From Roseitalea sp. (GTDB lineage: Bacteria; Pseudomonadota; Alphaproteobacteria; Rhizobiales; Rhizobiaceae), in NCBI GenBank assembly GCA_017642895.1, contig JAEPON010000012.1:37014-101013 (forward strand): DNA of 64,000 nt, read 5' to 3'. The notes under the pieces were generated by a model. That model did not search any database. It was not told the origin of the DNA and was given only the letters and a program-made list of their open reading frames with translations. The position numbers and the translations under genes are program-made. Positions 7,255-62,442 of the stretch are shown piece by piece (positions within the stretch are counted from its first letter, which is position 1; the number at the start of each line of letters is the position of its first letter).

Positions 7255-7330
7255 GGCATCAAGAGACGATCGCGCGCACCGACACATTCGCCGCGAACTG
7301 CCGCAGCCGCTCATCAAAACACGGAAAAAA

Positions 7331-7406
7331 TGGTGAGCGCGCAGGGGCTCGAACCCTGGACCTACTGATTAAAAGTCAGTTGCTCTACCAGCTGAGCTAC
7401 GCGCTC
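7331..7406 (-). tRNA. tRNA-Lys (anticodon UUU)
   Basis: The reverse complement reads GAGCGCGTAGCTCAGCTGGTAGAGCA...ACTGA-CTTTTAA-TCAGT...GGTTCGAGCCCCTGCGCGCTCACCA. A 7-bp acceptor stem, T-loop and CCA end are present. Confidence 0.9.
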
Positions 7407-7631
7407 CCGACAAGGGAAACCGCGCCGGGGTCGCCGGCGCGGGCAAGGCGTCCTTACGCAAAGCCGGCGGCCCGGTCAACAGCGTTTGCCGCCGTCCGGT
7501 CGCCGACGACATCATGCCGCGCCGCATCACGCAATTGGCATGTGATCGCGAGCGCGCTTTCGTGCTAACAGCGTCCAAATTCCGGCCTTCAAACCGGACA
7601 GGCAAACAAGAGGCATGACGACCGCAGGGCC

Positions 7632-47020: not shown

Positions 47021-47110
47021 GGAGGGGTGGCAGAGTGGTCGATTGCGGCGGTCTTGAAAACCGTTGAGCGTGCGAGCGTTCCGTGGGTTCGAATCCCACC
47101 CCCTCCGCCA
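47021..47110 (+). tRNA. tRNA-Ser (anticodon UGA)
   Basis: GGAGGGG acceptor stem pairing with CCCCTCC-G-CCA, anticodon loop CUUGAAA, long variable arm, and T-arm GGGTTCGAATCCC. Confidence 0.93.
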
Positions 47111-47464
47111 CCGAAATTCGCAAGTAATTGTGCGATCTTCTGCGCTAGAGCCTGTCTTTACCGCACAGAGGCTTGCTTCGACGGCTGAATGAAACCGGTC
47201 GATGGCATGCTCGACCACATTTGGCATCGGCATTTTGAGGTTTCCCTCTCAACTATCAAGACCAATTAGCGCATCGGCTCATGCCGGTTGAGACCGACCT
47301 TTGTGTGATTGATTGCCCACGGAGACATCATAGGTCCGCACAAGCGAACACCTGGCGGCATCCACGGACAGCGCCACACGTTCAAAGTTGAAAAGAAAAT
47401 TAGTACGAGGAGTCCTCATACGATTTTTGTTGATCTGCTTCAGAATCTCGTACACAAATGTTCT

Positions 47465-48016
47465 ATGAAAGCATTGGCAGACATCGCCTCAGTGCTAAGC
47501 GGGGTTTCACCGCCGAGAGGGCGCTACGGGGCTGATCTGTATGTGCAGATCAAGGACTTGAAGGAAAACGGTGCGCCTTCAACCAAAGGGCCGGCGCCGT
47601 CGGCCAAACGTGCGACGCGGATAGCCGTGCGCGATTTGCTCGTCGCCTCCCGCGGTGACGAAGCGTCCGTGGTGCGTCCCTCGCCCCGCATGATCGGCGC
47701 TTATGCTGGCCTCGATGTGTATCTCATTCGACCGGACCTCAATCACGTCGATCCCAACTATTTACTAATCGCCCTCAACAGCGATGCAGCGCTCAAGCAG
47801 TTGAGGATGGCCGCTACCGGCGGCGCGCTGCCTCGCATACCCAAGCAGGCTTTGGAGACCGTGGAACTGCCGCTCCCAAGTCTCGACGCGCAGCGAAAGA
47901 TCGCTCAGATCGGCGTGCTGGCTAAGCGTTGCGAAACACTTCAAACAAAAAGATGCGAAGCGCAATCGAGATTGAATGCTGCGATCCTCGCTAAACTAGT
48001 CAAAACAGCGGCATGA
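47465..48016 (+). CDS. hsdS: Type I restriction-modification specificity subunit, half-size (single TRD)
   Basis: 183 aa from ATG 47465. The N-terminus MKALADIASVLSGVSPP is typical for HsdS. There is one target-recognition domain and then a conserved helical region (LPLPSLDAQRKIAQI...). It ends 13 nt upstream of hsdM. Confidence 0.72.
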   Translation: MKALADIASVLSGVSPPRGRYGADLYVQIKDLKENGAPSTKGPAPSAKRATRIAVRDLLVASRGDEASVVRPSPRMIGAYAGLDVYLIRPDLNHVDPNYLLIALNSDAALKQLRMAATGGALPRIPKQALETVELPLPSLDAQRKIAQIGVLAKRCETLQTKRCEAQSRLNAAILAKLVKTAA

Positions 48017-48029
48017 GACGGAAACATTC

Positions 48030-49583
48030 ATGACCAGAACAGAAGACATCAATAATGCGGTTTGGGCGGCTTGCGACACGTTTCGCGGAGTCATCGATGC
48101 CGAGCAATACAAGAACTACATACTCGCGCTGCTCTTCCTCAAATACATCAGCGATGTCTGGAACAAGCACTACAGCGACATGCTGGAGGAGTTCGGAGAT
48201 CATCCGCAGCGCGATTTACGCATTCGCCGGCGCCTCGAACGCGAGCGTTTCAAGCTGAAGGAGATTCAATACCGAAACGAGGACGGGGAAATCGTCGAGA
48301 CCTTCCTGTCGAGTTTCGACAGCCTCTACGAACGCCGCAACCGCGACAATGTCGGTGAACTGATCAACATGGTGCTCGACGCCATCGAACAGGCGAACGA
48401 GCCGAAGTTGAACGGCGTCTTCCGCAATATCGATTTCAACTCCGAGATCAGCCTCGGCCAAACCAAGGATCGCAATCGTCGCCTCAAAAATGTCCTGGAG
48501 GATTTCGCCAAGCCGAGCCTCGACCTCAGCACCGTCAGTGAGGACGCAATCGGCGAAGCCTACATCTACCTGATCGAGCAGTTCGCAGCGGACGCCGGTA
48601 AGAAGGCTGGCGAGTTCTTCACGCCGCGCAAGGTATCCGAGGTCGTCGCGAAGCTCGCCGCGCCCAAGGACGGCGCGTTGATCTGCGATCCGGCTTGCGG
48701 TTCAGGTTCGCTCCTTCTGCGCGCCGGCGAAGAGGTCGGCACCGACAACTTCCGCCTTTATGGCCAGGAAGCGAACGGCCAGACCGTGGCGCTCGCCCGC
48801 ATGAACATGTTCCTGCACGGACGGGACGCTGCGGACATTCGCTGGTGCGATACCCTCAACGGTCCGACCTTGCTCGAAGGCGATCATCTGATGCGCTTCG
48901 ACACCGTCGTCGCCAACCCTCCGTTCAGCCTCGACAAATGGGGAGCCGAGAACGCCGAGGCCGATCCCTACCGGCGCTTTGCGCGCGGGGTGCCGCCGAA
49001 ATCGAAAGGCGACTACGCCTTCATCCTGCACATGCTTGCCGTCGCCCGGCCTGGCGAAGGCCGCGTTGCGGTCGTCGCGCCCCATGGCGTCCTGTTCAGG
49101 GGCGGCGCTGAAGGGCGGATTCGCGAGAGCATCGTTCGAGACAACCTGCTCGACATCGTCGTCGGATTGCCGGCCCAGCTCTTTCCGACGACGGGCATTC
49201 CGGTTTGCGTCCTCGTCTTCGACCGGGCGCGGGAGCCTGGCGGCGCGCGCGAGACCGAGCGTGACGTGCTGTTCATCGATGCGAGCCGCGAGTTTGCGTC
49301 CGGCAAGCGCCAGAATCAGCTTCGCGACGAGGACGTGGCGAAGATCGTCGCGACGGCGGCCGAACGCGCCGAGATCGAACGCTATTCGCACCGCGCCGCG
49401 TTCGAAGAGATCGAGCGCAACAAGTTCAATCTCAACATCCCGCGCTACGTCGACACATTCGAGCCCGAGCCCGAAATCGACATCCAGGCCGTCCAAGACG
49501 AAATCCGCGACCTCGATCGGCAACTCGCCGAGACGCGGGCCGAAATGAACCGGCATCTGAAGGAGCTGGGCATTGAGGTCTGA
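48030..49583 (+). CDS. hsdM: Type I restriction-modification N6-adenine DNA methyltransferase subunit
   Basis: HsdM N-terminal domain (ILALLFLKYISD), SAM motif DPACGSGSLL and catalytic NPPFS. Confidence 0.95.
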   Translation: MTRTEDINNAVWAACDTFRGVIDAEQYKNYILALLFLKYISDVWNKHYSDMLEEFGDHPQRDLRIRRRLERERFKLKEIQYRNEDGEIVETFLSSFDSLYERRNRDNVGELINMVLDAIEQANEPKLNGVFRNIDFNSEISLGQTKDRNRRLKNVLEDFAKPSLDLSTVSEDAIGEAYIYLIEQFAADAGKKAGEFFTPRKVSEVVAKLAAPKDGALICDPACGSGSLLLRAGEEVGTDNFRLYGQEANGQTVALARMNMFLHGRDAADIRWCDTLNGPTLLEGDHLMRFDTVVANPPFSLDKWGAENAEADPYRRFARGVPPKSKGDYAFILHMLAVARPGEGRVAVVAPHGVLFRGGAEGRIRESIVRDNLLDIVVGLPAQLFPTTGIPVCVLVFDRAREPGGARETERDVLFIDASREFASGKRQNQLRDEDVAKIVATAAERAEIERYSHRAAFEEIERNKFNLNIPRYVDTFEPEPEIDIQAVQDEIRDLDRQLAETRAEMNRHLKELGIEV

Positions 49584-50511
49584 GGGCGCGCACCATAAGG
49601 GCCGCAAGGTCGGCCGCACGCTGAAGCTCTTCCTTGTCGACGGCTCGCCGACCGGCGTGATCACGGCGGAGCTCGGCAACTGGTCCGGCAAGGCCGTCGT
49701 GGCCCCGCGCACGGCGCTACCCGAGCTGATCAGGCGTGAGGAAGCGTCGCGCACCGGCGTCTATCTTCTTATGGGCGCCGACCCGGACAATCCGGCGCGC
49801 ACCCTCGTCTATGTCGGCGAGAGCGACAGCGTCCGCACGCGGCTCGCCAGTCACGATGCGGACGACGCCAAGCAGTTCTTCACACGCGTCTGCCTCATCG
49901 TCTCCAAAGACGAAAACCTGACCAAGGCGCATGGCCGCTATCTGGAAGCGCGGATCATGGCGCTGATCCGGGCAGCGGCGCGCGCCGTCCTGGTCAACGG
50001 CACCGAGCCGGACTTCAAGGGCCTGCCCGAACCCGAGATCGCCGACATGGAGGGCTTCCTGTCGGAGATCGAGGTCTTGCTGCCCGTGCTCGGCTTCGAT
50101 GTTCTACGCCGCGCGGCGGAAAGCGGCGACGCCGATGATGGCCAGGGCGCCGCAGAATCCGTTTTCACCTTCACCGAAGCGGGAACGCAGGCCCGCGCCA
50201 AGGAGGCCGGCGGCGAGTTCGTGGTCCTCGCCGGCTCGCTCGCCCGCGTGAAGGAGACGCGCACGATTCACGACGGCGCCAAGACCCAGAGGCGGCAATT
50301 CGTCGAGGACGGCGTCTTCGTGAAAACCGAGGACGGTCAGCACTACGCCTTCACCCGCGATGTCGCCTTCTCCTCGCCTTCGGGCGCCGCGGCCGTGGTT
50401 TATGGCGGCAATGTCAGCGGCCCGGCCTATTGGAAGCGTGAAGGCGACGGCCTTTCCTACAAGGACTGGCGCCAGCAAGCCCTCGCCCAGGCGCAGGGAG
50501 GCGCGGAATGA
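49573..50511 (+). CDS. GIY-YIG nuclease-like protein with a DUF4357-like C-terminal domain, embedded in the RM operon
   Basis: TTG 49573 follows AAGGAG. GVYLLMG...LVYVGESDSVRTRL...YLEARI fits the GIY-YIG blocks. The C-terminal FVVLAGS...SSPSGAAAVVYGGNVSG resembles DUF4357 (from memory). It overlaps hsdM by 11 nt and hsdS by 4 nt. Confidence 0.7.
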   Translation: MRSEGAHHKGRKVGRTLKLFLVDGSPTGVITAELGNWSGKAVVAPRTALPELIRREEASRTGVYLLMGADPDNPARTLVYVGESDSVRTRLASHDADDAKQFFTRVCLIVSKDENLTKAHGRYLEARIMALIRAAARAVLVNGTEPDFKGLPEPEIADMEGFLSEIEVLLPVLGFDVLRRAAESGDADDGQGAAESVFTFTEAGTQARAKEAGGEFVVLAGSLARVKETRTIHDGAKTQRRQFVEDGVFVKTEDGQHYAFTRDVAFSSPSGAAAVVYGGNVSGPAYWKREGDGLSYKDWRQQALAQAQGGAE

Positions 50512-51863
50512 CGGACGCCGCCCTTTCCTACGACAACGAAGCAACAGCAGAAGCCAGCTTTGAGGCAAGTCCGCCAAGTTCCTACCCGCCGAGCGTTCAG
50601 CCCGGCATCCCGACGCTAGGACGCAAACCCGAGGGCTGGTCACGTGTCAGCATCGGCGACTTACTAGAACCTGTGTACCGGCCTGCAAAGCTTGCCGACG
50701 ACGAGCAGTATCAACTGGTCACAGCCAAGCGCAGTCGCGGCGGTATCGTTCCGCGCGCCATCCTTTACGGTCGAGATATCCGTACAAAGACCCAGTTCTA
50801 TGTCGAGCCGGATGATTTCCTTATCTCTCGCCGCCAAATCTCGCACGGTGCGTGCGGTTTGGTCCCGCCGAACCTCGACGGCGCAGTGGTGTCAAACGAG
50901 TACGTGGCGTTCAAGCCCAAGAGCGGACTCGACCTCCGCTTTCTGCAACACCTGTCACACTCCGTCTATTTTCAGCAGACATGCTTTCATTCGAGCATCG
51001 GCGTCCATGTCGAAAAGCTTGTTTTCAAGATCGAGGATTGGCTCGAATGGGAGATCGACGTACCGCCGATGGCCGAACAGCGGCGGATTGCGGACGTCCT
51101 CGACGCTTGGGACCGCGCAATCGCGCATACCGACGCGCTGATCGACGCAAAGCGGAAGCGCTTCAACTGGCTCTACTCCGAGCTCTTTCCGGCATCGGGT
51201 ACATCCCTCCCAAACAGTTGGGAGGCGGCGCCTGTTACGAGTGTGGCTGCCGTCCGTTTCAGTGGGGTGGACAAGAAGACCGTCGAAGGTGAGAGGCCGG
51301 TTAGGCTCTGCAACTACACTGACGTCTTCAATAACCGCCGCATCACTGCCGACATGCCCTTCATGTCCGCGACCGCGAAGCCGCGCGAGATCGAAGCGTT
51401 CACGCTCCAGCTTGGTGATGTTGTGTTCACCAAGGACTCCGAAACAGCGGAAGAAATCGGCGAAAGCGCCGTGGTCGCCGAACCGTTGGACAATGTCGTG
51501 TGCGGCTATCACTTGGGCGTGGCGCGCGCACGCCCTGACACGATGATCGGCGATTTTCTTGCGCTAGCCCTCCGCCATCCGTGGGTCCGCGAGGAGTTTA
51601 GAAAAGCCGCGAACGGAGTGACGCGCTTCGGTCTCAATCTCGATGTCATGGACCAAGTCCAGGTGCTGTTTCCGCCGCTCGATCAGCAGGAAAAGCTCGT
51701 TGCTACCTTGAACGCGGTGGAGGACGAAATCGAGCTCCTGACGAAGTCCTTGACGCCCCTGCGAGAGCAGAAAAAGGGCCTGATGCAAAAGCTGCTCAGC
51801 GGCGACATGCGCCTCTCATCAACCGAGTCTCTGAGAGGGAAGGAAGATGCGCATGCCGATTGA
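50508..51863 (+). CDS. hsdS: Type I restriction-modification specificity subunit (full length, two TRDs)
   Basis: 451 aa. Two variable TRDs are separated by the conserved helices PPMAEQRRIADVLDAWD and PPLDQQEKLVATLNAVE. Confidence 0.92.
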   Translation: MTDAALSYDNEATAEASFEASPPSSYPPSVQPGIPTLGRKPEGWSRVSIGDLLEPVYRPAKLADDEQYQLVTAKRSRGGIVPRAILYGRDIRTKTQFYVEPDDFLISRRQISHGACGLVPPNLDGAVVSNEYVAFKPKSGLDLRFLQHLSHSVYFQQTCFHSSIGVHVEKLVFKIEDWLEWEIDVPPMAEQRRIADVLDAWDRAIAHTDALIDAKRKRFNWLYSELFPASGTSLPNSWEAAPVTSVAAVRFSGVDKKTVEGERPVRLCNYTDVFNNRRITADMPFMSATAKPREIEAFTLQLGDVVFTKDSETAEEIGESAVVAEPLDNVVCGYHLGVARARPDTMIGDFLALALRHPWVREEFRKAANGVTRFGLNLDVMDQVQVLFPPLDQQEKLVATLNAVEDEIELLTKSLTPLREQKKGLMQKLLSGDMRLSSTESLRGKEDAHAD

Positions 51864-52926
51864 ACTGCTCTCCTTCGACCAGGCCCTCGACAAGGCTTCG
51901 GGATATTCCAAACGGCATCTGCTGCTGGGAAATGGCTTTAGCATTGCTTGCGAGCCAGCCATCTTCACCTACGGGTCGCTGTTCGAGCAGGCCAAACCCA
52001 ACATGTCGGACGAATTGCTCAAGGTGTTTGAGAAGTTGGGCACCACCGATTTCGAGGCGGTAATTCGCGCGCTACAAGACGCTTCCGTCATTGTACCCAT
52101 CTACACCGAAAAAGCGCCGAAGACAGCCGCGCGCATTGCAGCGGACGCACGCGCACTCAAGGAAGCGTTGGTCTCAGCGGTAGCCGGAAAGCATCCCGCC
52201 CGACCAAATGACATCGGCGACGAGCGCTATTCGGCTTGCCGGCAGTTCCTCGCGACCTTCATCGGTGGCGACGCCGGAGGAAAGGTCTACACGCTAAACT
52301 ACGACCTATTGCTCTATTGGGCGCTCATGCATGACCCTGAGGAGGATGACGGCCTGGGGTTGAACCATGATGATGGATTTCGCAAAGACCCAGATGATTT
52401 GGATGCTGATTATGTAATCTGGCATGGAGAAACCCACGCCAATTCGCAGAATGTCCACTATCTTCACGGAGCCATGCACCTTTACGATGCCGGCGCGGAA
52501 CTGCAGAAGTACACTTGGGTGAACACCGGGAAGGCCCTGGTCGATCAGGCAAATGAAGCCATTGCTGCCAACTTCTTTCCGGTGTTTGTTGCAGAGGGTG
52601 AAAGCAGACAGAAGCTCGCGAAAATCAAACACAGCGCATATCTGCATCATAGCTACAAGAGTTTTCACGGCATCTGCCGACAAGGCGCCAAGACAGCCCT
52701 TTTCATCTTCGGTCACTCGCTTGCTGAGAACGACCGGCACATTCTCCACCGGATCGGTCGCAGCAAGCTCGCGCACGTTTTCGTGAGCCTGTTTGGCGAC
52801 CCGAACTCGCCCGCTAATCGGCAAATTCGCGCGAACGCTGACGCAATCGGGAGGCTTCGGGCCGAAGGTGCGGCACCGTTGAAGATCGACTTTTTTGACG
52901 CTGCGTCCGCCCAAGTCTGGGGCTAA
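51847..52926 (+). CDS. DUF4917-like protein with SIR2-type (DHS-like NAD-binding) motifs, embedded between hsdS and hsdR
   Basis: 359 aa. Ordered motifs: LLLGNGFS (aa 25-32), VYTLNYDLLL (147-156), YLHGA (205-209) and LFIFGHSLAENDRHI (285-299). It overlaps the hsdS end by 17 nt and stops 3 nt before hsdR. Confidence 0.7.
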   Translation: MRMPIELLSFDQALDKASGYSKRHLLLGNGFSIACEPAIFTYGSLFEQAKPNMSDELLKVFEKLGTTDFEAVIRALQDASVIVPIYTEKAPKTAARIAADARALKEALVSAVAGKHPARPNDIGDERYSACRQFLATFIGGDAGGKVYTLNYDLLLYWALMHDPEEDDGLGLNHDDGFRKDPDDLDADYVIWHGETHANSQNVHYLHGAMHLYDAGAELQKYTWVNTGKALVDQANEAIAANFFPVFVAEGESRQKLAKIKHSAYLHHSYKSFHGICRQGAKTALFIFGHSLAENDRHILHRIGRSKLAHVFVSLFGDPNSPANRQIRANADAIGRLRAEGAAPLKIDFFDAASAQVWG

Positions 52927-52929
52927 ATC

Positions 52930-55900
52930 ATGACCGAGAGCCCGCAATTCTCCCTCTCCGAAGCCGGGCGCGAGCAGTTGCAGGCGCTCATGACGCTGTC
53001 GGCGCTCGGCTGGCGCTATGTCACGCGGGCGGAGGTCGACCGACAGCGCCGCCACCGCCGAACGAACGTGTTGCTTGAAGACACGCTGCGCGGCCAACTC
53101 GCCGCCCTCAACCGCATCCGCGCCGGCGGGCGCACGCACGCCTTTTCGGAAGGCAATATCGAGACCGCGGTCGAGCGGCTGAAAGACGTTCGCTTCGACG
53201 GGCTCCTGCGCACGAATGAGCGGCAGACGGATCTTTTACAGCTCGGCGTCGCCTTGCCCCAGACCGTCGAAGGCCAGTCCCGGGAATGGCCTTTCCGCTA
53301 CATCAATTGGGGACAGGATCCGGACAGCCTGCGCGCCAACGCCTTCAACATGACAGCAGAGTTTCCGGTCGATTGGCCGGAAGGCGCGAGCATCCGGCCC
53401 GACATCGTGCTGTTCGTGAACGGCATCCCCTTCGCAGTCATCGAGGTGAAACGTAGCCAGGAGAAGGTCAGCCAAGGCATCAGCCAGCATCTGCGCAACC
53501 AGAAGCCCGACATCGGGGCGCCGAATCTCTTCTTTACGGCGCAGCTGCTCATCGCCGGAAACTCACACGAACCACGCTACGCCACCGTTGGCACACCGGC
53601 GAAGTTCTGGTCCGCTTGGCGCGAGCGAGAAGACGCCCGGGATTACGTCGCCGACGTCGTGGGCCGGGAGATCGATGCGACCGACGAAGCGGCGATTTTT
53701 CAGGACTTCGGCCTGCATCGAAACAGGCACAACGGCATGCGCGAGGCCGGTGGCCGCATGGCGACCCTGCTCGACGAAATGCTGGTCAGTCTGTGCCGGC
53801 CCGAGCGCCTGCTCGATCTCGCTCGCCGGTTCACGCTGTTCGACGCGGGCGCGAAGAAGGTGGCGCGGCACCAGCAGTTCTTCGCCGTGAAGGACCTTCT
53901 GCGGCGCGTCGAAGCGCGCGGCGACAATGGACGCCGCGCCGGAGGCGTCGTTTGGCACACGCAAGGGTCGGGGAAGTCGCTGACCATGGTGATGCTCGCC
54001 AAGGCGCTGTCGTTCAGCGTGCCCACGGCCCGGATCGTGCTGGTCACCGACCGCACCGACCTTGACGATCAGATCGACAAGACCTTCAAGGCGACTGGAC
54101 TGTCGCCGGAGCGCGCAAAGACCGGCGAGCACCTCGTCGAACTGATCGAAGCCAGGGCGCCCGTGATCACCACGCTCGTTCACAAGTTCAAGGCGGGGCT
54201 CAACAAGCGCCGCGTGGTTGACGAAAGCTCTGACATCTTTCTGCTCGTCGATGAGAGCCACCGCAGCCAGTACGGCGACATGGAAAGCCTGCATCAGAAG
54301 ATGCGGGACGTGCTTCCCGGCGCATGTCTGATCGGCTTCACGGGCACGCCGATCGCGAAAAAGGAACGCAATACCTTTGCGAAGTTCGGGCCCCTGATTC
54401 AGCCCGTCTACTCGATGAAAGACGCGGTCGAGGACGGCGCGGTCGTGCCCCTTCTCTATGAAGGTCGTCATGTCGAGGAGGATATCGACGAAGACGCCGT
54501 TGACGCCTGGTTCGATCGAGTGACGTTCGGACTCACCGAGACGCAGAAAGCGGATCTCAAACGCAAGATGAGCCGGCCGCGCACCCTCATGGGCGTTTCC
54601 GCGCGGCTGCGTTGCATCGCCTTCGACGTAAGCCGGCACTTCGCCGAGAACTTCAAACCGGACCGTCTCAAGGCGCAAATCGTCGCGCCGTCCAAGCGTG
54701 ATGCGATCGCGCTGAAGGGCCTTCTGGACGAGTTCGGCGAAGTGACGTCCGAAGTCGTGATCTCAGCCCCGGATCAGCGCGAAGGCGAGAAGGCCATCGA
54801 CGAAGAAACCAACGACGAGGTCGTCAAGTTCTGGCGGCGAATGATGGACCGGCATGGTGGAGAAGAAAGCTACAACAAGAACGTCATCGCCGCGTTCAAG
54901 GGCTCCGGTGATCCGGATATCTTGATCGTTGTCGACAAGCTCTTGACCGGCTTCGATGCGCCGCGGAACACCGTCCTCTACCTGGCGCGCCCGATGAAAG
55001 AGCATGGACTGCTGCAGGCCATCGCACGCGTCAATCGCGTGTTCGACGAAGACGATGCGCCAGAAAAACCGTTTGGCTTCGTGATCGATTACTGTGGGGT
55101 ACTGCGACATTTGGGCGAAGCGCTCAGCGCGAACGACGCGTTGCGTGACTTCGATGAGGCTGACCTTCAACGCTCAATCAGCTCCGTCGCCGAAGAGGCA
55201 CGAACGCTTCCACAGAAGCACGCAGCGTTGCTCGATCTGTTCGCCGGCGTTTCTAACGTTTTTGACGAGGAGGCTTACGCCAGAGAGCTCTCTGACGACG
55301 CATTGCGCGAACAGTTCTACCGGCGCCTATCGGAATTCTCGCGTACGCTTACAGTAGCCGTAAGCTCTCGAACCTTCATCGAAGAAACACCGCATGAGCG
55401 GCTGCTACGGTGGCGCTCCGACGAGAAACGGTTCATTGCGCTTCGGGCCCACGTGAAGGCGCGGTATGCCGACGCCATCGATTGGTCGGACTACGAACGG
55501 CGCGTCCGCTCATTGCTAGATCAGCATGTCACGGCCCATGAGGTGACAACGGTTGTCGAACCGCTCGCTGTATTCGATGATGGTGCGATCGAAGCGGCTA
55601 GGCAGGAACGGAAGCGATCCGATGCATCGATCGCCGATGAAATTGCACACCGAACACTCCGCACCATCGAAGAGAAGTGGGACGAGGACCCTGTCTTTTT
55701 CGAGAAGTTCTCGAAGCTGATCCGCCAGACGATCGACGATTTTCGTCGAGGTCGACTGGAAGAAAGAGCCTACCTCGAACGTATTCGGGAACAACGAGAC
55801 AAGCTTGAAACACGCGACGATGAGGATGATCCGACGCCTACGGAGTTGCGCGGAAAAGGCAATGAAACCGCGTTCTGGGGAATTTCGCGCCGCGAGCTTC

Positions 55901-56163
55901 GCAAAGCTGGCGTCGGCGACGAGCACCTGGCTGTGCGCGTTTCTCTGTCGTTAACCGACATTATCCAGCGCATGCGCCGCGTCGGGTGGCAACACGACCG
56001 CGATGTCCAGAATGAAATGCGCAACGCGATGGACGACTTCTTCTTTGATGAAGTCATGAGCAAGGACGGCGTCGATCTCGATCCTGCCGTGATGGATGGG
56101 ATCGTGAACGAAGTGCTGGCGGCGGCTCGGGTGCGGATGCAGGACGATGGCCGTGTCCGCTGA
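52930..56163 (+). CDS. hsdR: Type I restriction enzyme endonuclease/translocase subunit
   Basis: 1077 aa. N-terminal PD-(D/E)xK (RPDIVLFVNGIPFAVIEVKRS), helicase motif I HTQGSGKSLT and motif II LLVDESHRSQ. Confidence 0.96.
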   Translation: MTESPQFSLSEAGREQLQALMTLSALGWRYVTRAEVDRQRRHRRTNVLLEDTLRGQLAALNRIRAGGRTHAFSEGNIETAVERLKDVRFDGLLRTNERQTDLLQLGVALPQTVEGQSREWPFRYINWGQDPDSLRANAFNMTAEFPVDWPEGASIRPDIVLFVNGIPFAVIEVKRSQEKVSQGISQHLRNQKPDIGAPNLFFTAQLLIAGNSHEPRYATVGTPAKFWSAWREREDARDYVADVVGREIDATDEAAIFQDFGLHRNRHNGMREAGGRMATLLDEMLVSLCRPERLLDLARRFTLFDAGAKKVARHQQFFAVKDLLRRVEARGDNGRRAGGVVWHTQGSGKSLTMVMLAKALSFSVPTARIVLVTDRTDLDDQIDKTFKATGLSPERAKTGEHLVELIEARAPVITTLVHKFKAGLNKRRVVDESSDIFLLVDESHRSQYGDMESLHQKMRDVLPGACLIGFTGTPIAKKERNTFAKFGPLIQPVYSMKDAVEDGAVVPLLYEGRHVEEDIDEDAVDAWFDRVTFGLTETQKADLKRKMSRPRTLMGVSARLRCIAFDVSRHFAENFKPDRLKAQIVAPSKRDAIALKGLLDEFGEVTSEVVISAPDQREGEKAIDEETNDEVVKFWRRMMDRHGGEESYNKNVIAAFKGSGDPDILIVVDKLLTGFDAPRNTVLYLARPMKEHGLLQAIARVNRVFDEDDAPEKPFGFVIDYCGVLRHLGEALSANDALRDFDEADLQRSISSVAEEARTLPQKHAALLDLFAGVSNVFDEEAYARELSDDALREQFYRRLSEFSRTLTVAVSSRTFIEETPHERLLRWRSDEKRFIALRAHVKARYADAIDWSDYERRVRSLLDQHVTAHEVTTVVEPLAVFDDGAIEAARQERKRSDASIADEIAHRTLRTIEEKWDEDPVFFEKFSKLIRQTIDDFRRGRLEERAYLERIREQRDKLETRDDEDDPTPTELRGKGNETAFWGISRRELRKAGVGDEHLAVRVSLSLTDIIQRMRRVGWQHDRDVQNEMRNAMDDFFFDEVMSKDGVDLDPAVMDGIVNEVLAAARVRMQDDGRVR

Positions 56164-56863
56164 AGCGTCGTTCAAATGGGGGCGTCGGCGTATTGCTTAC
56201 TCAATTGAGCGAACTGATCGATCCCGGCTGAAGATTACAGTAACCCCGTCTTGCGAGGTGCGCGTAGTAGCACCTTTGCAAGCGCATAAAGACGAAATTC
56301 GGGAGCGGGTGCAGCGTAAAGGGCATTGGATCGTCAAGCAAATCGAGGACTTTGAGCAATATCGCCCTAAGACGCCAACGAGGCAGTTTGTAAGCGGAGA
56401 GACACATCTTCTTAAGGGTGTTCAGTACCGGCTTAGGGTAGTAAGCCATGTAGCGTCGAATATTTTCATTGACCATGACCGGATCGTTATCGAGACGCCA
56501 AGGTCTGAAAGCCGGCGCCATAAGGCTGCACTGCTAAAACACCTTTACAACATTGAAGCTCACAGAGAGTTCCCGGCCCGGCTCAACGCCGTTATGCCAG
56601 CATTTGGCGTCGATGGCGTCGAACATCCGCGCTTAATCATTCGGCCAATGATCAAGCGCTGGGGGAGCTTCACACCGAAGCGGAACCTGGTCCTCAACTT
56701 GGACCTCATTCAGGCCCCAGTATACTGCATCGATTATGTGATAGCTCACGAGTTAGCGCACGCGGTTCAGCCCGATCATGGCCCGCGCTGGAGGCGGCTG
56801 ATGGACCGAGCTATGCCCGATTGGCGCGAGCGGAAGATCCATCTGGAACAAAGTCTGCTTTAG
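56147..56863 (+). CDS. YgjP/DUF45-type HExxH metal-dependent hydrolase (M48-like)
   Basis: 238 aa. HELAHAVQPDHGPRWRRLM is the zinc-binding HExxH plus the downstream conserved block. It overlaps the hsdR end by 17 nt. Confidence 0.8.
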   Translation: MAVSAEASFKWGRRRIAYSIERTDRSRLKITVTPSCEVRVVAPLQAHKDEIRERVQRKGHWIVKQIEDFEQYRPKTPTRQFVSGETHLLKGVQYRLRVVSHVASNIFIDHDRIVIETPRSESRRHKAALLKHLYNIEAHREFPARLNAVMPAFGVDGVEHPRLIIRPMIKRWGSFTPKRNLVLNLDLIQAPVYCIDYVIAHELAHAVQPDHGPRWRRLMDRAMPDWRERKIHLEQSLL

Positions 56864-56934
56864 CGGCTTCATCTTCACGCCTTCAGACAAAACACACTGC
56901 GACGTCCGTGAACTCATTGTGAGGAAATGTACGT

Positions 56935-58164
56935 TTACTCACGCGGCCATGCCCAACTGGGCTTCGCTTCATCTTCAGTATCAAACAGCATTCCCTTGGT
57001 CAGGCGCTCTTCAATGGCGGTTTGTGATAGGCATTCATCAAGCCGTTCCACGCACTCGTCGAGCCAGATCAGCATTGCCGCCAGTCTCGGCTGCCCCTGA
57101 TCCTTCGCCTCTGCAGATATCGCCGTTTTGAGGCGGACGAGGCGTTCGCGCTCCTGCATCTGCTGAACAAGCGTTCCCACGAACTTCTCGCGCCTCGCTT
57201 CGATCCGCTGCCTTCGTTCGGCCTCCGCTCGCTCTCGTGCGTGTTCCGCTTCGCGAGCAGCCCGTTCTTTGGCTTCCTTCTCCCGTTCGATCTTGCGCGA
57301 TGCGATAGCGACGACCCCAATTGCGATCTCACGCGCCATCGTTTCGAGATTCTGAATCTTGCCGTCCGAGAAGGATCGGCGAAGGGCAGAACCACCTCCC
57401 CAGACCTGTTCGAGTTCGATCTTCAACTTGCCGGTGGGCACATAATCCCACTCGGCGATTTCCGGCCGTTCAAAGTATGACAGCGCATCCCAGCTGCGAC
57501 CGAAACGCCGGCTCCGATCCTGTTCCCACTTTTCGAGCTTTTTCTTCTCTTCTTCGGTTGGCACGTGCTTTCGCCGATCGAGCTTCTCCGTAACCGAAAA
57601 CGCTACCGTCTGACCTAGGACACTGAGCGCGGCGCTGTTCTCTGTCCGGACGTATCGGCCGGACTGTTCGACCAAGGCGCGCTGGAGGTTGAGAAGCACA
57701 CGTTCGGCGTGGTCGATGGATGCGGGCGCGATGTCCACATGGATAAGACCGCACCCGCTCGAACTGACCAGGCGCCTGTCCCCGGGGTTGGCTTTGCGGA
57801 GCTTTTTCAGCGTCCGCTGTACGATTGGATCGGGTATTATGTCGGTCGGGTTATCCGCGTTATTCTCGATTCGCGCCTTTGCTTCTGAAATCGCGGCCGC
57901 GACGCCGGGGCTCGGCGGATCGTTGGTCGATCCGTATACAACGACCTGGTCGGATATGTCCTTCCTTAGCCGCGGCAGCGGCGTCACCTCGACCGGTTTG
58001 CCGTGCTCGATTTTCGCCCAATGGCCCCGCGGCGGCTTGGGGATGTCGTGCTTCGAGCAAATTTTGTGGACCGCGACGTCTGAGACGCCGAGGTCTCCGG
58101 CGATTTTCGTGATCGGCTTCGACCAGACCAGATCATAGAACTCACGGCGGGTGAATGTCTGCAT
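56935..58164 (-). CDS. Hypothetical protein with an HTH-like N-terminus and a charged coiled-coil C-terminus
   Basis: ATG 58164 follows GGAG (the ORF track begins at TTG 58173). N-terminal FYDLVWSKPITKIAGDLGVSDVAVHKICSKHDIPKPPRGHWAK, followed by a long E/R/K-rich coil. It starts 27 nt downstream of the ATPase stop. Confidence 0.6.
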   Translation of the reverse strand: MQTFTRREFYDLVWSKPITKIAGDLGVSDVAVHKICSKHDIPKPPRGHWAKIEHGKPVEVTPLPRLRKDISDQVVVYGSTNDPPSPGVAAAISEAKARIENNADNPTDIIPDPIVQRTLKKLRKANPGDRRLVSSSGCGLIHVDIAPASIDHAERVLLNLQRALVEQSGRYVRTENSAALSVLGQTVAFSVTEKLDRRKHVPTEEEKKKLEKWEQDRSRRFGRSWDALSYFERPEIAEWDYVPTGKLKIELEQVWGGGSALRRSFSDGKIQNLETMAREIAIGVVAIASRKIEREKEAKERAAREAEHARERAEAERRQRIEARREKFVGTLVQQMQERERLVRLKTAISAEAKDQGQPRLAAMLIWLDECVERLDECLSQTAIEERLTKGMLFDTEDEAKPSWAWPRE

Positions 58165-58191
58165 AGTCTCCAATCCTATTATCGGCCAGGA

Positions 58192-59412
58192 TCACCTCCA
58201 AAGACCTGAAATCGGCGCTGCCGCCAGCCCGTCACCGAATGGAACGACATCTTTGCCGTCATAGAGCACGACGCCGTAAGCGAAGCGATCGCCGCACGCC
58301 TCGGCGAGCGCGCGAAGGCCTCTGAGGTCCCCGGATTTGACGGTGGCGCTCGCCTTGACCTCGATCGCAGCGATTTTCCCATCGTCGCGCTCCAGGACGA
58401 TGTCCACCTCGCGCCCGTCCCGGTCCCGGAAATGATAAGGCGTGACGGTCAGGTCCGTTGCCGCCATGAGCTTCAGCACCTCGGAAAATACAAAGCTCTC
58501 AAGCAGCGCGCCGAATGCTCCTCGGTCGGCCTTTATCCTCTCGGCTGTCAGGCCGCGGGCGCTGGCCAGCAGACCGGAGTCGAGGAAATGCAGTTTTGGC
58601 GTCTTCACGATGCGCTTCAGCGCATTCGTGAACCAGGGCTGCAGGGTTGCGATTAGGAACACCTGCCCAAGCAGGCCGACATAGCGCTGCCCCGTCTTGT
58701 GACTGACGCCGATACCGGCGCCGAGCTGCGAATAGTTGACCAGTTGGCTGGAGTATTCGGCCAAAAGCCGCACGAATTTTGGAAGCTCGGTCAGCTTTTC
58801 CACGTCGGCGATGTCGCGAAGGTCGCGCGTGAGGATCGACGCGAGATAAGAGCGCGCCCAATCCTGCTGGCGCCGTTCGCTTGACCGGGCGATGGCTTCG
58901 GGAAAGCCGCCGCGCAGGACGATGTGCGCCAAATCATCGCCGACAATGGCGTCCGGCTGGGCTCGAAGCCTTCCCTCGTAAAGGCGCTCAAGAAAGCGCG
59001 GTGTACGGCCATCGATTTCGGCGCGTGCGAGCGGCAGCATGTGCAGCGTTTCCATCCGACCCGCGAGACTGTCGGCGATCTTGGGAAGGGTCAGAACATT
59101 CGCCGAGCCTGTGAGGAGAAACCGGCCTGGGCGATAATCTTCGTCGACAGACTTCTTGATGGCGAGCAGAAGATCGGGCGCGCGCTGGATCTCATCGATG
59201 ATAGCGCGGTCCAGCCCCCGGACGAAGCCGGCGGGATCGGACTGGGCCGCCTCTAAAACGGTCTGGTCGTCGAGCGTGATATAGTCCCGGCCTTCCTCCT
59301 GCATCTTTTTCACCAGGGTGGCCTTGCCCGCCCGGCGCGGTCCGACGATCAAAACCACCGGCGTATCGGACAGGGCTTCCTCCGCCCGGCTTTCTAAGAA
59401 CCGCTTAAACAT
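58192..59412 (-). CDS. AAA+ ATPase (AAA_14/DUF4143-type) with a C-terminal PD-(D/E)xK-like motif
   Basis: ATG 59412 follows GGAGAGGGG. Walker A GPRRAGKAT, Walker B AIIDEIQ, and a C-terminal GREVDIVLERDDGKIAAIEVKAS restriction-endonuclease-like D...ExK. Confidence 0.85.
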   Translation of the reverse strand: MFKRFLESRAEEALSDTPVVLIVGPRRAGKATLVKKMQEEGRDYITLDDQTVLEAAQSDPAGFVRGLDRAIIDEIQRAPDLLLAIKKSVDEDYRPGRFLLTGSANVLTLPKIADSLAGRMETLHMLPLARAEIDGRTPRFLERLYEGRLRAQPDAIVGDDLAHIVLRGGFPEAIARSSERRQQDWARSYLASILTRDLRDIADVEKLTELPKFVRLLAEYSSQLVNYSQLGAGIGVSHKTGQRYVGLLGQVFLIATLQPWFTNALKRIVKTPKLHFLDSGLLASARGLTAERIKADRGAFGALLESFVFSEVLKLMAATDLTVTPYHFRDRDGREVDIVLERDDGKIAAIEVKASATVKSGDLRGLRALAEACGDRFAYGVVLYDGKDVVPFGDGLAAAPISGLWR

Positions 59413-59432
59413 CCCCTCTCCGAGTCTCCGAC

Positions 59433-59489
59433 AATTTGGAACTATCGAGCCTGGCTGATTGGAAGTCAATAGATCGCTAATTGGAAGTA
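59433..59489. repeat. Three direct copies of an (A/T)TTGGAA(G/C)T motif upstream of the ATPase gene
   Basis: TTGGAA cores at 59436, 59459 and 59481, so the spacing is 23 and 22 bp (about two helical turns). They lie in the presumed promoter region of the minus-strand ATPase gene. Confidence 0.5.
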
Positions 59490-59641
59490 TGGGTAGCGCA
59501 ATCCGGGAAGACTGCTAGAGGTCGCCCTGTCGTGACCGAAGGCCTCTGCAACTCCGGTTCGCTGGCGAAGCGCCATACCGAAACAGATCAGTGGATAGGC
59601 CGCTGTATCACCGAACTCCAGAGCGGCAGGTGCCCAAACAT

Positions 59642-59902
59642 CTATTTATTCTTATCGCCGACTTTTGGTCCGAACATCTCCTCCAGAATATCCCCGAACC
59701 AGCGCTCGATGACGTCCACCTCTTCGGGCGTCACAGGCACCTTCTCCGGCCAGTCATCGACCACGCGCCAGTCGGACAGATCATCAGCTTTGGACGTGCG
59801 TCGCTTCCTCGGTTTTGGCTTCTCTACATAATCGTAGAGATCGATGGCGTCCCTACCTGTCGTGGCGCGTCGGCGGACAGTTTTGCGTTTGTTGTCTGTC
59901 AT
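59642..59902 (-). CDS. Small basic hypothetical protein
   Basis: 86 aa, ATG start, Lys/Arg-rich N-terminus and an acidic C-terminus (WPEKVPVTPEEVDVIERWFGDILEEMF). Divergent from the HTH gene. Confidence 0.45.
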   Translation of the reverse strand: MTDNKRKTVRRRATTGRDAIDLYDYVEKPKPRKRRTSKADDLSDWRVVDDWPEKVPVTPEEVDVIERWFGDILEEMFGPKVGDKNK

Positions 59903-60141
59903 GTCCCTCAGCCTGCGCTGGCAGACTGAACAGATAATGACGAATTATTAGGTCATCGTAGAATCGGCGGTGGAAACGGGCGTTTGGCGGTCAGAATCTT
60001 TTGCACGACACCCACAAGCCAGCTGCTGGGCGCGCCAGTGATCACTCTCGTGCATGCCCCTTCAGCAACGACATCTCCAACGCGAGTGCGATGAGCCTTG
60101 GCTGCGCGTCAATTCCGGCGCGCTATTCAAGGAGAAATGAA

Positions 60142-60411
60142 ATGAGCAAATCTCAAAACTTTCCGCCACGCTTTCTTTCTACGAACGAAGCCGCGCGGTT
60201 CCTGTGTCTTTCGCCGAGAACGCTGGAAAAACATCGCAGCCACGGGACAGGCCCGATGTATCGGAAGCTCGGCGGTCGCATCGTCTACTCGATCGATGAC
60301 CTCGAAAGCTGGGCCGACAAAGGGCTACGTTCTTCAACGTCCGATCACGGTGAAGACGTGATCCATCCGCCCAGCCCGAAACGTGCGAAACGCAAACCGG
60401 AAGAAAACTAA
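60142..60411 (+). CDS. Excisionase/MerR-type helix-turn-helix DNA-binding protein
   Basis: ATG 60142 follows AAGGAGA. LSTNEAARFLCLSPRTLEKHRSHGTGPMYRKLGGRIVYSIDDLESW matches the excisionase-family HTH pattern. Confidence 0.75.
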   Translation: MSKSQNFPPRFLSTNEAARFLCLSPRTLEKHRSHGTGPMYRKLGGRIVYSIDDLESWADKGLRSSTSDHGEDVIHPPSPKRAKRKPEEN

Positions 60412-60418
60412 AGGGATC

Positions 60419-60456
60419 GGCGATGCAGGGCGCATGCATGTAAGCCCCGCATCGCC
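60419..60456 (+). terminator. Hairpin just after the HTH gene
   Basis: GGCGATGC...GCATCGCC forms an 8-bp stem, extended by GGGC/GCCC inside. The U-run is weak (ATTTCC). Confidence 0.35.
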
Positions 60457-60874
60457 ATTTCCGATGTCAGCGTCGGCATGCTTTGATGGCGATGAGGACA
60501 GTGTCTTATCGTCGGTGCGACGCGTGAGGCCTCGTCAATGGAGACGCCCTGAGCAAGGAGAAAACATAAGGTTTGCGCAATCAAACTGCCTGTCGTAGCC
60601 CAGCCTGCCGTCGCGACCTGTAAAAGGCCACGTTCTCGCATTTTGACCTGCTTTAGAGTAGCGCAATAGAGAACGAATAGTTCGCAGAATCGACTCGCGT
60701 GGCCCGCCAATCTTGTTCGCCGGTCGCCGCAGGTTGCTCGAAGCCACCGCCTTTGTTGACCGGGCGTACTGCGATGACAGCGCACATGCAAAGCCCGCCC
60801 CGACGACAGCATGTGTCCATCCGCCGGTCGGGCAACTTCGATGTTGATGGGGATCGTGAACCCGACTATCGTGC

Positions 60875-61077
60875 CCATGATGGTTCCCGCGGACCGAGCG
60901 TAGCCGCGGGATGAAAAGGGAACACGGTGAGGAAGAGCCGCAAGGGCGCCAAATCCGTGACTGCCCCCGCAACTGTGAGCGGTGAGCGACCCCGATTGAT
61001 ACCACTGGTTGGCCGATGGCTGACCGGGAAGGTTCGGGGAAGCGGCGAACCGCAAGTCAGGAGACCTGCCATCATGG
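60875..61077 (+). promoter_or_regulatory. Cobalamin (B12) riboswitch
   Basis: P1 stem ccatgatgg/ccatcatgg. Conserved core AAAAGGGAACACGGTGAGGAA...GCTGCCCCCGCAACTGTGAGCGG...ACCACTGG...GGGAAGG. The B12 box AGTCAGGAGACCTGCC is present. Confidence 0.87.
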
Positions 61078-61178
61078 TTTCACTCGAACCGGACGGGGAT
61101 GTCCGGCCAGGAGGCTCGTGATGACACTATCCGGCACCAAATGCGCCGCATCAGGCTCTTTGCTCTTTCCCTGCCGAC

Positions 61179-61607
61179 ATGGAAAGGGCAATGGAGAGAT
61201 TGTCGAACCATCGCATCACGATTTGCGTTTCATGCCGCCACAAGACCGATGACGCTGATGGCGGGTGCCGGCCGGGCCGCCGCCTGATCGAGCGCCTGCG
61301 CGCGGCAATCGATCTCGCCGGCGACACGATCGGGGCTGATTTCGAGATCACCGGGACCGCATGCATGGCCGGGTGCGAACGGCCCTGCACGGTTGCCTAT
61401 TTCGGCTCCCGCAAGGCGACCTATCTGTTCGGCGACATCGATGCCGACGCCAACATCGACGATCTGGTTGCGTTCACCCGGCAATATGCATCGCTCGATG
61501 ATGGATGGTGCGCATCGACGAGCCGGCCGAAGGGGCTTTCCGGCAAAACGCTGGCGCGCGTGCCAGCCGCGATCCTGGCAACCGAACCGGGCGGGCGGCT
61601 GCAATGA
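61179..61607 (+). CDS. DUF1636-family metal-binding (thioredoxin-like) protein
   Basis: ITICVSCRHK...GCRPG...CMAGCERPCTVAY is the Cys pattern of DUF1636, a family commonly linked to cobalamin loci. Start is 61179 or 61191. Confidence 0.72.
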   Translation: MERAMERLSNHRITICVSCRHKTDDADGGCRPGRRLIERLRAAIDLAGDTIGADFEITGTACMAGCERPCTVAYFGSRKATYLFGDIDADANIDDLVAFTRQYASLDDGWCASTSRPKGLSGKTLARVPAAILATEPGGRLQ

Positions 61608-62437
61608 GCGACCAACCCGCCCCGCTTGAGCTTGTGGATGTCAGCTTCTGGCCCCGGGGCAAGGGCAAGGACAATGCGCTCGTCGCAAATGTCAGCTTTA
61701 AGGTCCGGCCGGGTGAGCGCGTTGCGATCGTCGGCCCGAACGGCGCGGGAAAGACGACGCTGATTCGCATGATCGCCGGTCTGGCCGCACCGGGCACCGG
61801 CGAGGTGTTGATTGACGGTATCCCGATCGCAAGGACGAGCTTTGCCGAGCGAGCCCGCAAGATTGCCTATGTCGGCCAGTCCGATGAGCCGGACGGGCGG
61901 CTGACCGTCATCGACTATGTCGCGCTCGGCTCCATACCCCAGGCCCGTCTTTTTGCCGGCGACAGCGGTCATGACCGGGCCGGACAGGCGCTGCGTGCCG
62001 CCAATCTGGCTGACCTTGCCCAAAGACGTCTCGACCAATTGTCCGGAGGTGAGCGGCAAAGGGCCAAGATCGCCCGCGCCATATGCCAGCGCCCGTCGCT
62101 GCTCGTTCTGGACGAACCGACCAACCATCTCGATCCGCAAGCGCGCGGCGAACAGCTTTCGCTGGTCTCGTCCCTGGGGATTCCGATCGTCGCCGCGCTG
62201 CACGACCTGACACTCATCGATGCTTTCGCCGACAAGGTCGCTGTTCTGGCCGATGGCCGGCTTCAGGCTTTCGGCCCACCCGACGAGACGCTTTCGACAG
62301 CCAGGGTGCGCAACGTCTTCGGCGTCGATCTGCATCGTCTCAGACACCCGGTAAACGACTATTGCCTGCCAACCCTGGACATTCAAATTCCGCGGCCGGC
62401 ATCGACGTCCCCCGCCCCCATCCCACAACCGAGGTAA
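61604..62437 (+). CDS. ABC transporter ATP-binding protein (BtuD/FecE-like)
   Basis: ATG 61604 overlaps the upstream stop. Walker A GPNGAGKTT, signature LSGGERQR and Walker B LLVLDEPTNHLD. Confidence 0.9.
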   Translation: MSDQPAPLELVDVSFWPRGKGKDNALVANVSFKVRPGERVAIVGPNGAGKTTLIRMIAGLAAPGTGEVLIDGIPIARTSFAERARKIAYVGQSDEPDGRLTVIDYVALGSIPQARLFAGDSGHDRAGQALRAANLADLAQRRLDQLSGGERQRAKIARAICQRPSLLVLDEPTNHLDPQARGEQLSLVSSLGIPIVAALHDLTLIDAFADKVAVLADGRLQAFGPPDETLSTARVRNVFGVDLHRLRHPVNDYCLPTLDIQIPRPASTSPAPIPQPR

Positions 62438-62442
62438 ACCCG

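Follow-up and report, generated by a model that had tools for sequence, protein, structure and literature searches.

A type I restriction-modification operon of Roseitalea sp. as a probable carrier of exchangeable defence cargo in two slots

The DNA analysed here is a 64,000-nt stretch of Roseitalea sp., referred to as the window, which contains a type I restriction-modification (R-M) operon of seven genes at positions 47465-56863, all on the + strand. In this operon, hsdM, hsdS and hsdR are accompanied by a half-size hsdS gene, by a YgjP-like metalloprotease gene downstream of hsdR, and by two further genes, one in slot A between hsdM and hsdS and the other in slot B between hsdS and hsdR. 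The genes are as follows:

47465..48016, + strand: half-hsdS, 183 residues (Methylase_S; PADLOC Specificity_I)
48030..49583, + strand: hsdM (HsdM_N and N6_Mtase; TIGR00497)
49573..50511, + strand: slot A gene, GIY-YIG-like/DUF4357, PDC-S14 (PADLOC; DUF4357)
50508..51863, + strand: full-size hsdS with two target recognition domains, TRDs (two Methylase_S matches; Specificity_I)
51847..52926 (GenBank start 51853), + strand: slot B gene, DUF4917, PDC-S21, SIR2-like (Pfam; PADLOC; Foldseek)
52930..56163, + strand: hsdR (HSDR_N, SWI2_SNF2; TIGR00348)
56147..56863 (GenBank start 56153), + strand: YgjP-like/M48-type zinc metallopeptidase (PF01863; HELAH)

The first-pass annotation of this DNA described seven same-strand genes with junctions of +13, -11, -4 (ATGA), -17, +3 and -17 nt, and the list of open reading frames (ORFs) matches this exactly. 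An exact-sequence look-up finds the window's proteins as consecutive GenBank entries in metagenome-assembled genomes (MAGs) of Roseitalea sp., where they are annotated as subunit M, DUF4917 family protein, subunit R and 'M48 family metallopeptidase'. The GenBank proteins are identical to those of the window, with DUF4917 starting at 51853 (357 residues) and YgjP at 56153 (236 residues); with these starts, 6 nt further downstream, both -17 junctions become -11 and the overlap is kept. Good Shine-Dalgarno sequences precede the PDC-S14 gene (AAGGAG, 7 nt ahead of its TTG start), hsdS and the DUF4917 gene. The half-hsdS ORF is open back to a TTG at 47309, and its start at 47465 is backed by nine homologues, all of which open M-K/x-x-L at the same place and are mostly 183 residues long. 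A consensus scan for promoters and terminators inside the operon gave no excess over shuffled sequence, which is weak evidence either way. That such short junctions leave no room for internal promoters is a deduction from the spacing, and promoters can sit within coding sequence.

Base composition had been judged mosaic by eye, and the per-gene values of GC and of GC at third codon positions (GC3) confirm this, though the GC-richest gene is a passenger, PDC-S14. GC and GC3 are.585/.636 in half-hsdS,.613/.792 in hsdM,.673/.843 in PDC-S14,.589/.708 in hsdS,.560/.658 in DUF4917,.612/.751 in hsdR and.541/.594 in YgjP, and the GC3 of host genes in the window is about.75-.85. GC content alone was set aside as proof of mosaicism in favour of identity breakpoints. 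Long antisense ORFs of 277-371 residues lie on the - strand over hsdM (48702-49754), DUF4917 (52306-53139) and hsdR (53563-54678); they are the usual artefact of high-GC DNA and not genes.

Family matches and motifs bear out the initial description of the operon as a type I R-M system joined by additional enzymatic genes. HsdM combines PF12161 (HsdM_N) with PF02384 (N6_Mtase, 1.9e-96), reaches 280 bits against TIGR00497 (cutoff 243), and carries DPACGSG at residue 220 and NPPF at 296. The full-size HsdS shows two Methylase_S stretches and matches PADLOC Specificity_I over its full length (4.4e-76); its TRDs are swapped between operons that are otherwise 93-99% identical. HsdR contains HSDR_N, SWI2_SNF2, ResIII and T1R_D3-like domains, matches TIGR00348 at 1.8e-126 (423 bits, cutoff 285), and retains intact motifs: the PD...EVK nuclease at 157-174, GSGKS at 346 and DESH at 441. 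The only solved relative found for HsdR is that of EcoR124I (type IC), which aligns over the motor region only (288-727, E 2e-28). Together, HsdM, HsdS and HsdR have the sequence features of a type I R-M system and are predicted to form such an enzyme. The idea that the GIY-YIG gene substitutes for a defective HsdR nuclease was ruled out by the intact HsdR PD...ExK. As a separate observation, the operon of Mesorhizobium sediminum (L007, 5826-7012) has hsdS broken into two ORFs of 215 and 294 residues, probably through a frameshift or an assembly error.

The wider setting of the operon was drawn from an HsdR scan with one genome per species, which gave 17 loci, from the contexts of PDC-S14 and DUF4917 homologues, and from a metagenome scan with a DUF4917 alignment, which gave 80 loci; about 45 related operons were compared overall. 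Their common architecture is (half-hsdS)-hsdM-[slot A]-hsdS-[slot B]-hsdR-YgjP. Slot A contains PDC-S14, a RhuM-family gene (PADLOC PDC-S05) or nothing, and slot B contains DUF4917, DUF6119, DUF3800, or DUF4917 together with a dGTPase, CBASS cyclase or Pycsar cyclase gene. The same order and the same kind of overlaps are kept in many independent loci, and the arrangement is therefore not due to chance. The identical seven-gene order recurs in L018, L019, L021-24 (copies of one element), L048, L052 and L054, that is, in about six distinct elements with HsdR identities of 60-98%. Among the carriers of this order are a TARA contig (L018, 98% identical), a set of JGI contigs (HsdR 74%) and a Dongia genome (HsdR 60%, DUF4917 63%, PDC-S14 65%, YgjP 44%, half-HsdS 35%). 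All seven proteins have co-diverged (HsdR 60-74%, DUF4917 63%, PDC-S14 63-65%), and the homologue lists of PDC-S14 and DUF4917 have many contigs in common. The composite unit is thus not a one-off assembly. These seven-gene relatives are located on backbones resembling integrative and conjugative elements (ICEs), with integrase/AlpA/Trb or ParB/Toprim/DUF736/HTH_17/DUF2840 neighbours.

Exchange at slot B is clearest in eight alphaproteobacterial loci with HsdR identities of 87-97%, from Roseibium, Stappia, Mesorhizobium, Pelagibacterium, Croceicoccus, Tepidamorphaceae and Hyphomicrobiaceae. Half-hsdS, hsdM, PDC-S14, hsdS, hsdR and YgjP have the same order and overlaps there, apart from one locus (L008) that lacks PDC-S14. 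DUF4917 is present in none of the eight, and slot B holds either DUF6119, with or without a 446-residue gene of no known family, or DUF3800. DNA homology between the window and these relatives extends over 48029-50511 and begins again from exactly the hsdR start codon at 52930; DUF4917 is therefore a precise cassette. In more distant operons, slot B appears to gather several systems in tandem: DUF4917 shares it with a CBASS-type (CD-NTase-like) cyclase in L078, with a Pycsar cyclase and a Schlafen/AlbA-HATPase protein in L086, and with a dGTPase and DUF6119 in L106.

Comparison with L018, which has the same gene content, reveals a second layer of exchange. DNA identity is 55-59% in half-hsdS, 91-97% in hsdM and PDC-S14, about 40% in hsdS, 93-99% in DUF4917 and hsdR, and 59-70% in YgjP, with sharp breaks at about 48000, 50500, 51800 and 56150. 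Apparently a divergent operon already in place received the central block by recombination, with the specificity gene exchanged separately. Modular assembly, as originally suggested from base composition, is supported by these breakpoints and by a cassette replacement whose border is exactly the hsdR ATG. Along the 3' end, YgjP DNA is 59-70% identical in operons whose hsdR is 93-99% (L018) or 83-96% (L006) identical, with the break at the hsdR/YgjP overlap. The YgjP end and the 5' half-hsdS seem to derive from a different parent operon.

Slot B of the relatives also contains genes that stand outside present catalogues. A 446-residue protein with no Pfam, PADLOC or PHROG match accompanies DUF6119 or DUF3800 in L001, L002, L004, L005 (at about 7012-8352) and L007, and PADLOC has no model for DUF6119 (551 residues). 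Both are candidates for embedded defence genes not yet catalogued.

The gene downstream of hsdR was first described as one of three enzymatic passengers. Two of these, GIY-YIG/DUF4357 and DUF4917, retain that status; the HExxH gene does not, as it directly follows hsdR in all 17 HsdR-anchored loci, including those of Clostridia and Actinobacteria at 33-44% HsdR identity. Its product matches YgjP (PF01863) at 5.8e-51 (173.9 bits, cutoff 26), with HELAH at residue 201 and a weak SprT-like match. YgjP has the same place downstream of hsdR in all metagenomic loci whose flank is long enough to tell. Plasmids of Rhodococcus and Alteromonas show it there too, under the annotation 'M48' or 'SprT family' metalloprotease. 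Because of this universal placement after hsdR, YgjP is best classed, from gene context, as a backbone component or conserved accessory and not as cargo.

Half-hsdS, at the other end of the operon, encodes a single TRD. Its product matches Methylase_S at 1.6e-6 and PADLOC Specificity_I at 8e-17, and a profile built with its nine homologues matches the HsdS structures 5ybb and 3okg at about 1e-19, covering one TRD and a conserved-region helix. Half-size HsdS proteins of type IC systems (EcoDXXI and EcoR124I derivatives) can dimerise and read a palindromic bipartite site. Like those truncated forms, the half-HsdS of the window consists of one TRD and one conserved helix; unlike them, it is a naturally conserved separate gene beside a full-size hsdS. 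The best reading is that it acts as a second, dimeric specificity subunit, by analogy with the type IC forms.

The slot A protein matches the PADLOC model of PDC-S14 (PDLC04923) at 2.6e-111 over residues 13-306 and has a C-terminal DUF4357 domain at about residues 195-310 (9e-15, 54.8 bits, cutoff 38.4). Residues G62, Y64, Y80, G82, R90, E125 and N142 are invariant among its 38 homologues. The Pfam GIY-YIG match is sub-threshold, at 0.018 in the window protein and 4.6e-4 at best, and is seen in 23 of the 38 members; RefSeq labels the homologues 'GIY-YIG nuclease family protein'. An AlphaFold2 model of the protein has a pLDDT of 81. A Foldseek search with this model against PDB and BFVD gave nothing at E<=0.001, the whole-chain, multi-domain model having probably hampered the search, and a profile search of PDB sequences gave no match; the weak viral Foldseek matches are mostly to homing endonucleases. 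In 2 of the 38 homologues there is also a weak Pfam match (E about 0.008) to RAMA (Restriction Enzyme Adenine Methylase Associated), a hint that the C-terminal part of the protein, near DUF4357, may bind DNA as a RAMA-like module.

Among 13 sampled plasmid loci of PDC-S14 homologues with 26-62% identity, 8 lie inside or beside type I operons, 3 are located beside other giant helicase/ATPase genes, and 2 are alone. The type-I-linked homologues span six phyla and various gene orders, with hosts that include Alpha- and Gammaproteobacteria, Actinomycetota, Chlorobiota and Bacteroidota. Such an association suggests that PDC-S14 and type I enzymes are functionally connected.

The slot B protein, 359 residues from the window start, is a single domain that matches DUF4917 (PF16263) at 1.5e-70 (238.5 bits, cutoff 28) and, over its full length, the PDC-S21 model PDLC04960 at 3.6e-122. 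GNGFS (28-32), N151-Y-D and H207-G are invariant in 37 DUF4917 sequences. The best Foldseek match of its AlphaFold2 model is the SIR2 protein of SIR2-HerA (8sub/8suw; probability 1.0, E 9e-7), followed below threshold by sirtuins and by the SIR2 domains of SPARSA and Avs5 (E 0.06-0.5). A profile search of the PDB gave one marginal match, again to the SIR2 of SIR2-HerA (E 0.008). The model thus indicates a SIR2 fold with conserved catalytic Asn and His, and the protein is predicted to be an NAD+-consuming enzyme. Like the antiphage SIR2 NADases (SIR2-HerA, ThsA, DSR, SPARSA and Avs5), it has a SIR2/Rossmann fold with a GxG loop and an invariant catalytic Asn (N151 in NYD) and His (H207); unlike them, it is neither fused to nor flanked by a sensor or partner such as HerA, SLOG, pAgo or STAND, and in sequence it resembles the SIR2 of SIR2-HerA only marginally.

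Homologues of the slot B protein occur both within and outside type I operons. In the metagenome scan, DUF4917 homologues that reach 55% identity and have sufficient flank lie without exception between hsdS and hsdR of the operon's lineage; at 46-53% identity about half do so, and about 23 loci have no nearby hsd gene. Homologues at 25-53% identity often stand alone, with no hsd within 5-9 kb. On plasmids, most of them stand alone in the company of toxin-antitoxin genes, relaxases and recombinases; one is located beside a retron and an ABC-3C system, and another beside a different type I operon. Because the homologues so frequently stand alone, their distribution argues for DUF4917 as an autonomous single-gene module and not as an effector of the R-M enzyme.

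From these comparisons, the operon is probably a mobile type I R-M carrier with a fixed backbone and two recombination-prone slots for exchangeable defence cargo. The backbone consists of half-hsdS, hsdM, hsdS, hsdR and the YgjP/M48-like metalloprotease gene, and belongs to a widespread lineage whose nearest solved relative is EcoR124I. Layered defence by such an operon is plausible. A promoter in 47111-47464 would drive all the genes as one transcript, with translation coupled between them. A complex of two HsdM and one HsdS would methylate a bipartite adenine target, and with HsdR added, unmethylated targets would trigger ATP-driven translocation and cleavage. By analogy with type IC systems, a dimer of half-HsdS could provide a second specificity, for a palindromic site, to the same M and R subunits. 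DUF4917 would serve as an autonomous SIR2-type NAD+ hydrolase that aborts infections escaping restriction, and the GIY-YIG/DUF4357 protein would be a second nuclease associated with type I R-M, its C-terminal domain probably binding DNA. In the most speculative step, the metalloprotease would act on the R-M complex, in HsdR turnover or restriction alleviation.

Several points weigh against this interpretation. The only characterised DUF4917 protein, SliP of C. jejuni, is reported as a secreted sirtuin that acts as a lysine deacetylase on host histones, and not as a defence NADase (PMC10421069). The slot B protein of the window belongs to the same Pfam family as SliP; unlike SliP, it is encoded in a restriction operon of an environmental bacterium. 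The quality of its structural model is moderate, with a pLDDT of 70 and poor prediction over residues 177-266, and the TM-scores are about 0.45-0.5. The putative GIY-YIG assignment of the slot A protein rests on motifs and a sub-threshold Pfam match, with no significant match in the Foldseek and PDB profile searches. Finally, the context samples are small and not random, and two DUF4917 motifs served as seeds for the metagenome scan.

Among the alternatives to a carrier with cargo, it is doubtful, though conceivable, that the operon encodes a single seven-component machine, with GIY-YIG/DUF4357 and YgjP as accessory subunits, DUF4917 as a PrrC-like guardian, and a half-HsdS dimer alongside the full HsdS. 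If this were true, one possibility would be the recruitment of a second nuclease to translocating or stalled complexes, another the control of HsdR by the protease through restriction alleviation or the removal of dead-end complexes, and DUF4917 would deplete NAD+ upon enzyme inhibition. A guardian arrangement of the PrrC type is unlikely. It holds that the type I enzyme keeps DUF4917 and/or GIY-YIG/DUF4357 latent until an anti-restriction protein (Ocr, ArdA or Stp-like) releases the toxic effector, the seven genes being one integrated machine and not a carrier with cargo. The co-divergence of all seven proteins, with gene order unchanged, to HsdR identities as low as about 60% is consistent with it, as are the hsdS-hsdR placement of all sufficiently flanked DUF4917 homologues at or above 55% identity, the attachment of PDC-S14 to type I operons across phyla in differing gene orders, and the precedent of PrrC in the type IC EcoprrI locus (PMC12707154). 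Against the guardian arrangement stand the DUF4917 homologues at 25-53% identity that often lack any hsd gene within 5-9 kb, the close relatives (HsdR 87-97%) that carry DUF6119 in place of DUF4917, and L008, which dispenses with PDC-S14. Nearly exclusive embedding, one mark of a PrrC-type guardian, does not hold for DUF4917, which has many stand-alone homologues.

Another explanation, which appears improbable, denies the extra genes a defence function: DUF4917 would be a deacetylase or virulence sirtuin, the GIY-YIG gene a selfish homing or addiction element, and YgjP a housekeeping hydrolase, all hitch-hiking in a permissive operon. The report of SliP as a canonical sirtuin secreted into host cells speaks for it, together with the typical occurrence of GIY-YIG in homing endonucleases, to which the weak viral matches mostly lead, and the annotation of the slot A alternative RhuM as a 'virulence protein'. 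However, the organism is an environmental alphaproteobacterium, as the exact protein matches to Roseitalea MAGs show; slot B houses dGTPase, CBASS cyclase and Pycsar cyclase genes with DUF4917; DUF4917 is structurally closest to the SIR2 of antiphage SIR2-HerA and not to deacetylase sirtuins; and both PDC families were selected after filtering of mobile-element and housekeeping functions. The universal coupling of YgjP to hsdR is also contrary to random hitch-hiking. For half-hsdS in particular, it is highly improbable that the gene is a remnant in decay, or that it serves as a silent cassette from which specificity is switched by phase variation, and not as a working subunit. Its single TRD, the lack of a recognisable Shine-Dalgarno sequence, a GC3 that is second-lowest among the seven genes and the frequent occurrence of shufflons at loci with multiple hsdS genes could all be read in that way. 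Yet more than 15 related loci, with identities of 26-58%, have the ORF intact at about 183 residues, with motifs conserved from end to end. No shared repeats, inverted ones included, were found between half-hsdS (47465-48016) and full hsdS (50508-51863), no protein similarity was detected between their products, and no recombinase is present among the annotated genes of the operon or island. On these grounds, and because the gene is intact across loci, a phase-variable shufflon or pseudogene is unlikely; the alignments indicate a conserved, intact gene and not a remnant.

The carrier reading is also consistent with the surroundings of the operon, an island of lower GC content. At 46900 the GC content drops from about 0.63 to 0.54, to rise again near 60700, and a tRNA-Ser gene marks the left edge. 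The features around the operon are:

47021..47110, + strand: tRNA-Ser(TGA), found by ARAGORN; ends 354 nt before half-hsdS
56935..58173, - strand: island gene for a 412-residue protein (ORF), convergent with the operon
58192..59469, - strand: ATPase with AAA_14 (1e-23) and DUF4143 (2e-45), PADLOC candidate PDC-S01 (4.3e-169)
60001..60411, + strand: HTH_17/excisionase-like gene (HTH_17 7.5e-9; PHROG excisionase 1.2e-8)

The 412-residue protein matches no Pfam, PADLOC or NCBIfam family and has a marginal PHROG match only; over about 67 N-terminal residues it is matched at 42% by sequence lying upstream of the L005 operon. The PDC-S01 gene represents a third candidate defence gene on the island, outside the operon. 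The HTH_17 gene, 3 kb after the operon, shares 61-63% identity with the immediate downstream neighbour of YgjP in L003 and L018, and is probably a remnant of an ICE backbone; beyond it lie host-like cobalamin and ABC transporter genes. A repeat of the tRNA-Ser 3' end (26 nt, <=3 mismatches) was not found downstream, a blastn-short comparison of the tRNA plus 90 nt with 56864-64000 gave only chance 8-11-mers, and the annotated genes of the window include no integrase. Since the window is without an integrase or att repeat while relatives show complete ICE contexts, the island is most likely a decayed integrative element or ICE remnant, with two genes inserted after the operon. As in the window, a tRNA gene adjoins the operon of L001 and that of L007; in L006 one is located about 8 kb downstream of the operon.

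The operon does not overturn current understanding. It offers a clean natural example of type I operons as carriers, with two precise slots, sharp breakpoints and interchangeable cargo, and it provides tractable test cases for three widespread families, namely hsdR-coupled YgjP/M48, type-I-linked PDC-S14 and single-domain DUF4917 (PDC-S21). The operon is relevant, too, to the published view of DUF4917 proteins as virulence sirtuins, since the slot that the family occupies here is otherwise filled with dGTPase, CBASS and Pycsar genes.

Genes embedded in type I loci have precedents, with which the operon of the window can be compared. The PDC models were built by 'guilt-by-embedding' (Payne 2024, 10.1101/2024.01.29.577857) from genes embedded in type I R-M, BREX and DISARM loci, and the families were chosen as defence candidates after mobile-element and housekeeping functions had been filtered out. 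The PADLOC check proposed in the first-pass annotation places both passengers in such families, PDC-S14 (2.6e-111) and PDC-S21 (3.6e-122); they are candidates only, matched over their full length. No phenotype for PDC-S14 or PDC-S21 was found in the searched literature, nor was any functional study in R-M operons found for DUF4917, DUF4357, PDC-S14/S21 or YgjP/DUF45/COG1451 with hsdR; these family names are absent from the supplementary tables of the Payne preprint, and the DefensePredictor paper makes no mention of the families.

PrrC, an ABC-ATPase/anticodon nuclease, is almost exclusively embedded (10.1101/2024.01.29.577857); in the type IC EcoprrI locus it senses inhibition of the restriction enzyme (PMC12707154). 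As with PrrC in EcoprrI, a locus of the EcoR124I-like kind, a putative effector gene is nested in the type I operon of the window, where EcoR124I is the nearest solved relative of HsdR. Unlike PrrC, DUF4917 is SIR2-like and often stand-alone.

A further precedent is the RRDM island of enteropathogenic Escherichia coli, a horizontally acquired, phage-protective locus with the order rptR-hsdM-hsdS-darT-darG-hsdR-M48 metallopeptidase, in which the hsdS-hsdR site has been called a potential recombination hotspot (PMC12255303). Both it and the operon of the window are seven-ORF, single-strand type I operons with cargo between hsdS and hsdR and an M48/YgjP gene after hsdR. The cargo of RRDM is the DarTG2 toxin-antitoxin system and its first gene encodes the repressor RptR, whereas in the window the cargo is DUF4917 and the first gene is half-hsdS. 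Unlike RRDM, the operon of the window has a second slot, between hsdM and hsdS, with the GIY-YIG/DUF4357 gene; RRDM was tested against phages, whereas the present operon is known from sequence alone. Embedded defence genes in type I loci have thus already been described (PrrC, DarTG2, guilt-by-embedding), and the operon of the window is a further example. What appears to be new here, relative to those systems, is the two-slot architecture with YgjP and half-hsdS as backbone genes, the apparent cross-phylum linkage of PDC-S14 to type I operons, and the co-residence of DUF4917 with validated defence genes.

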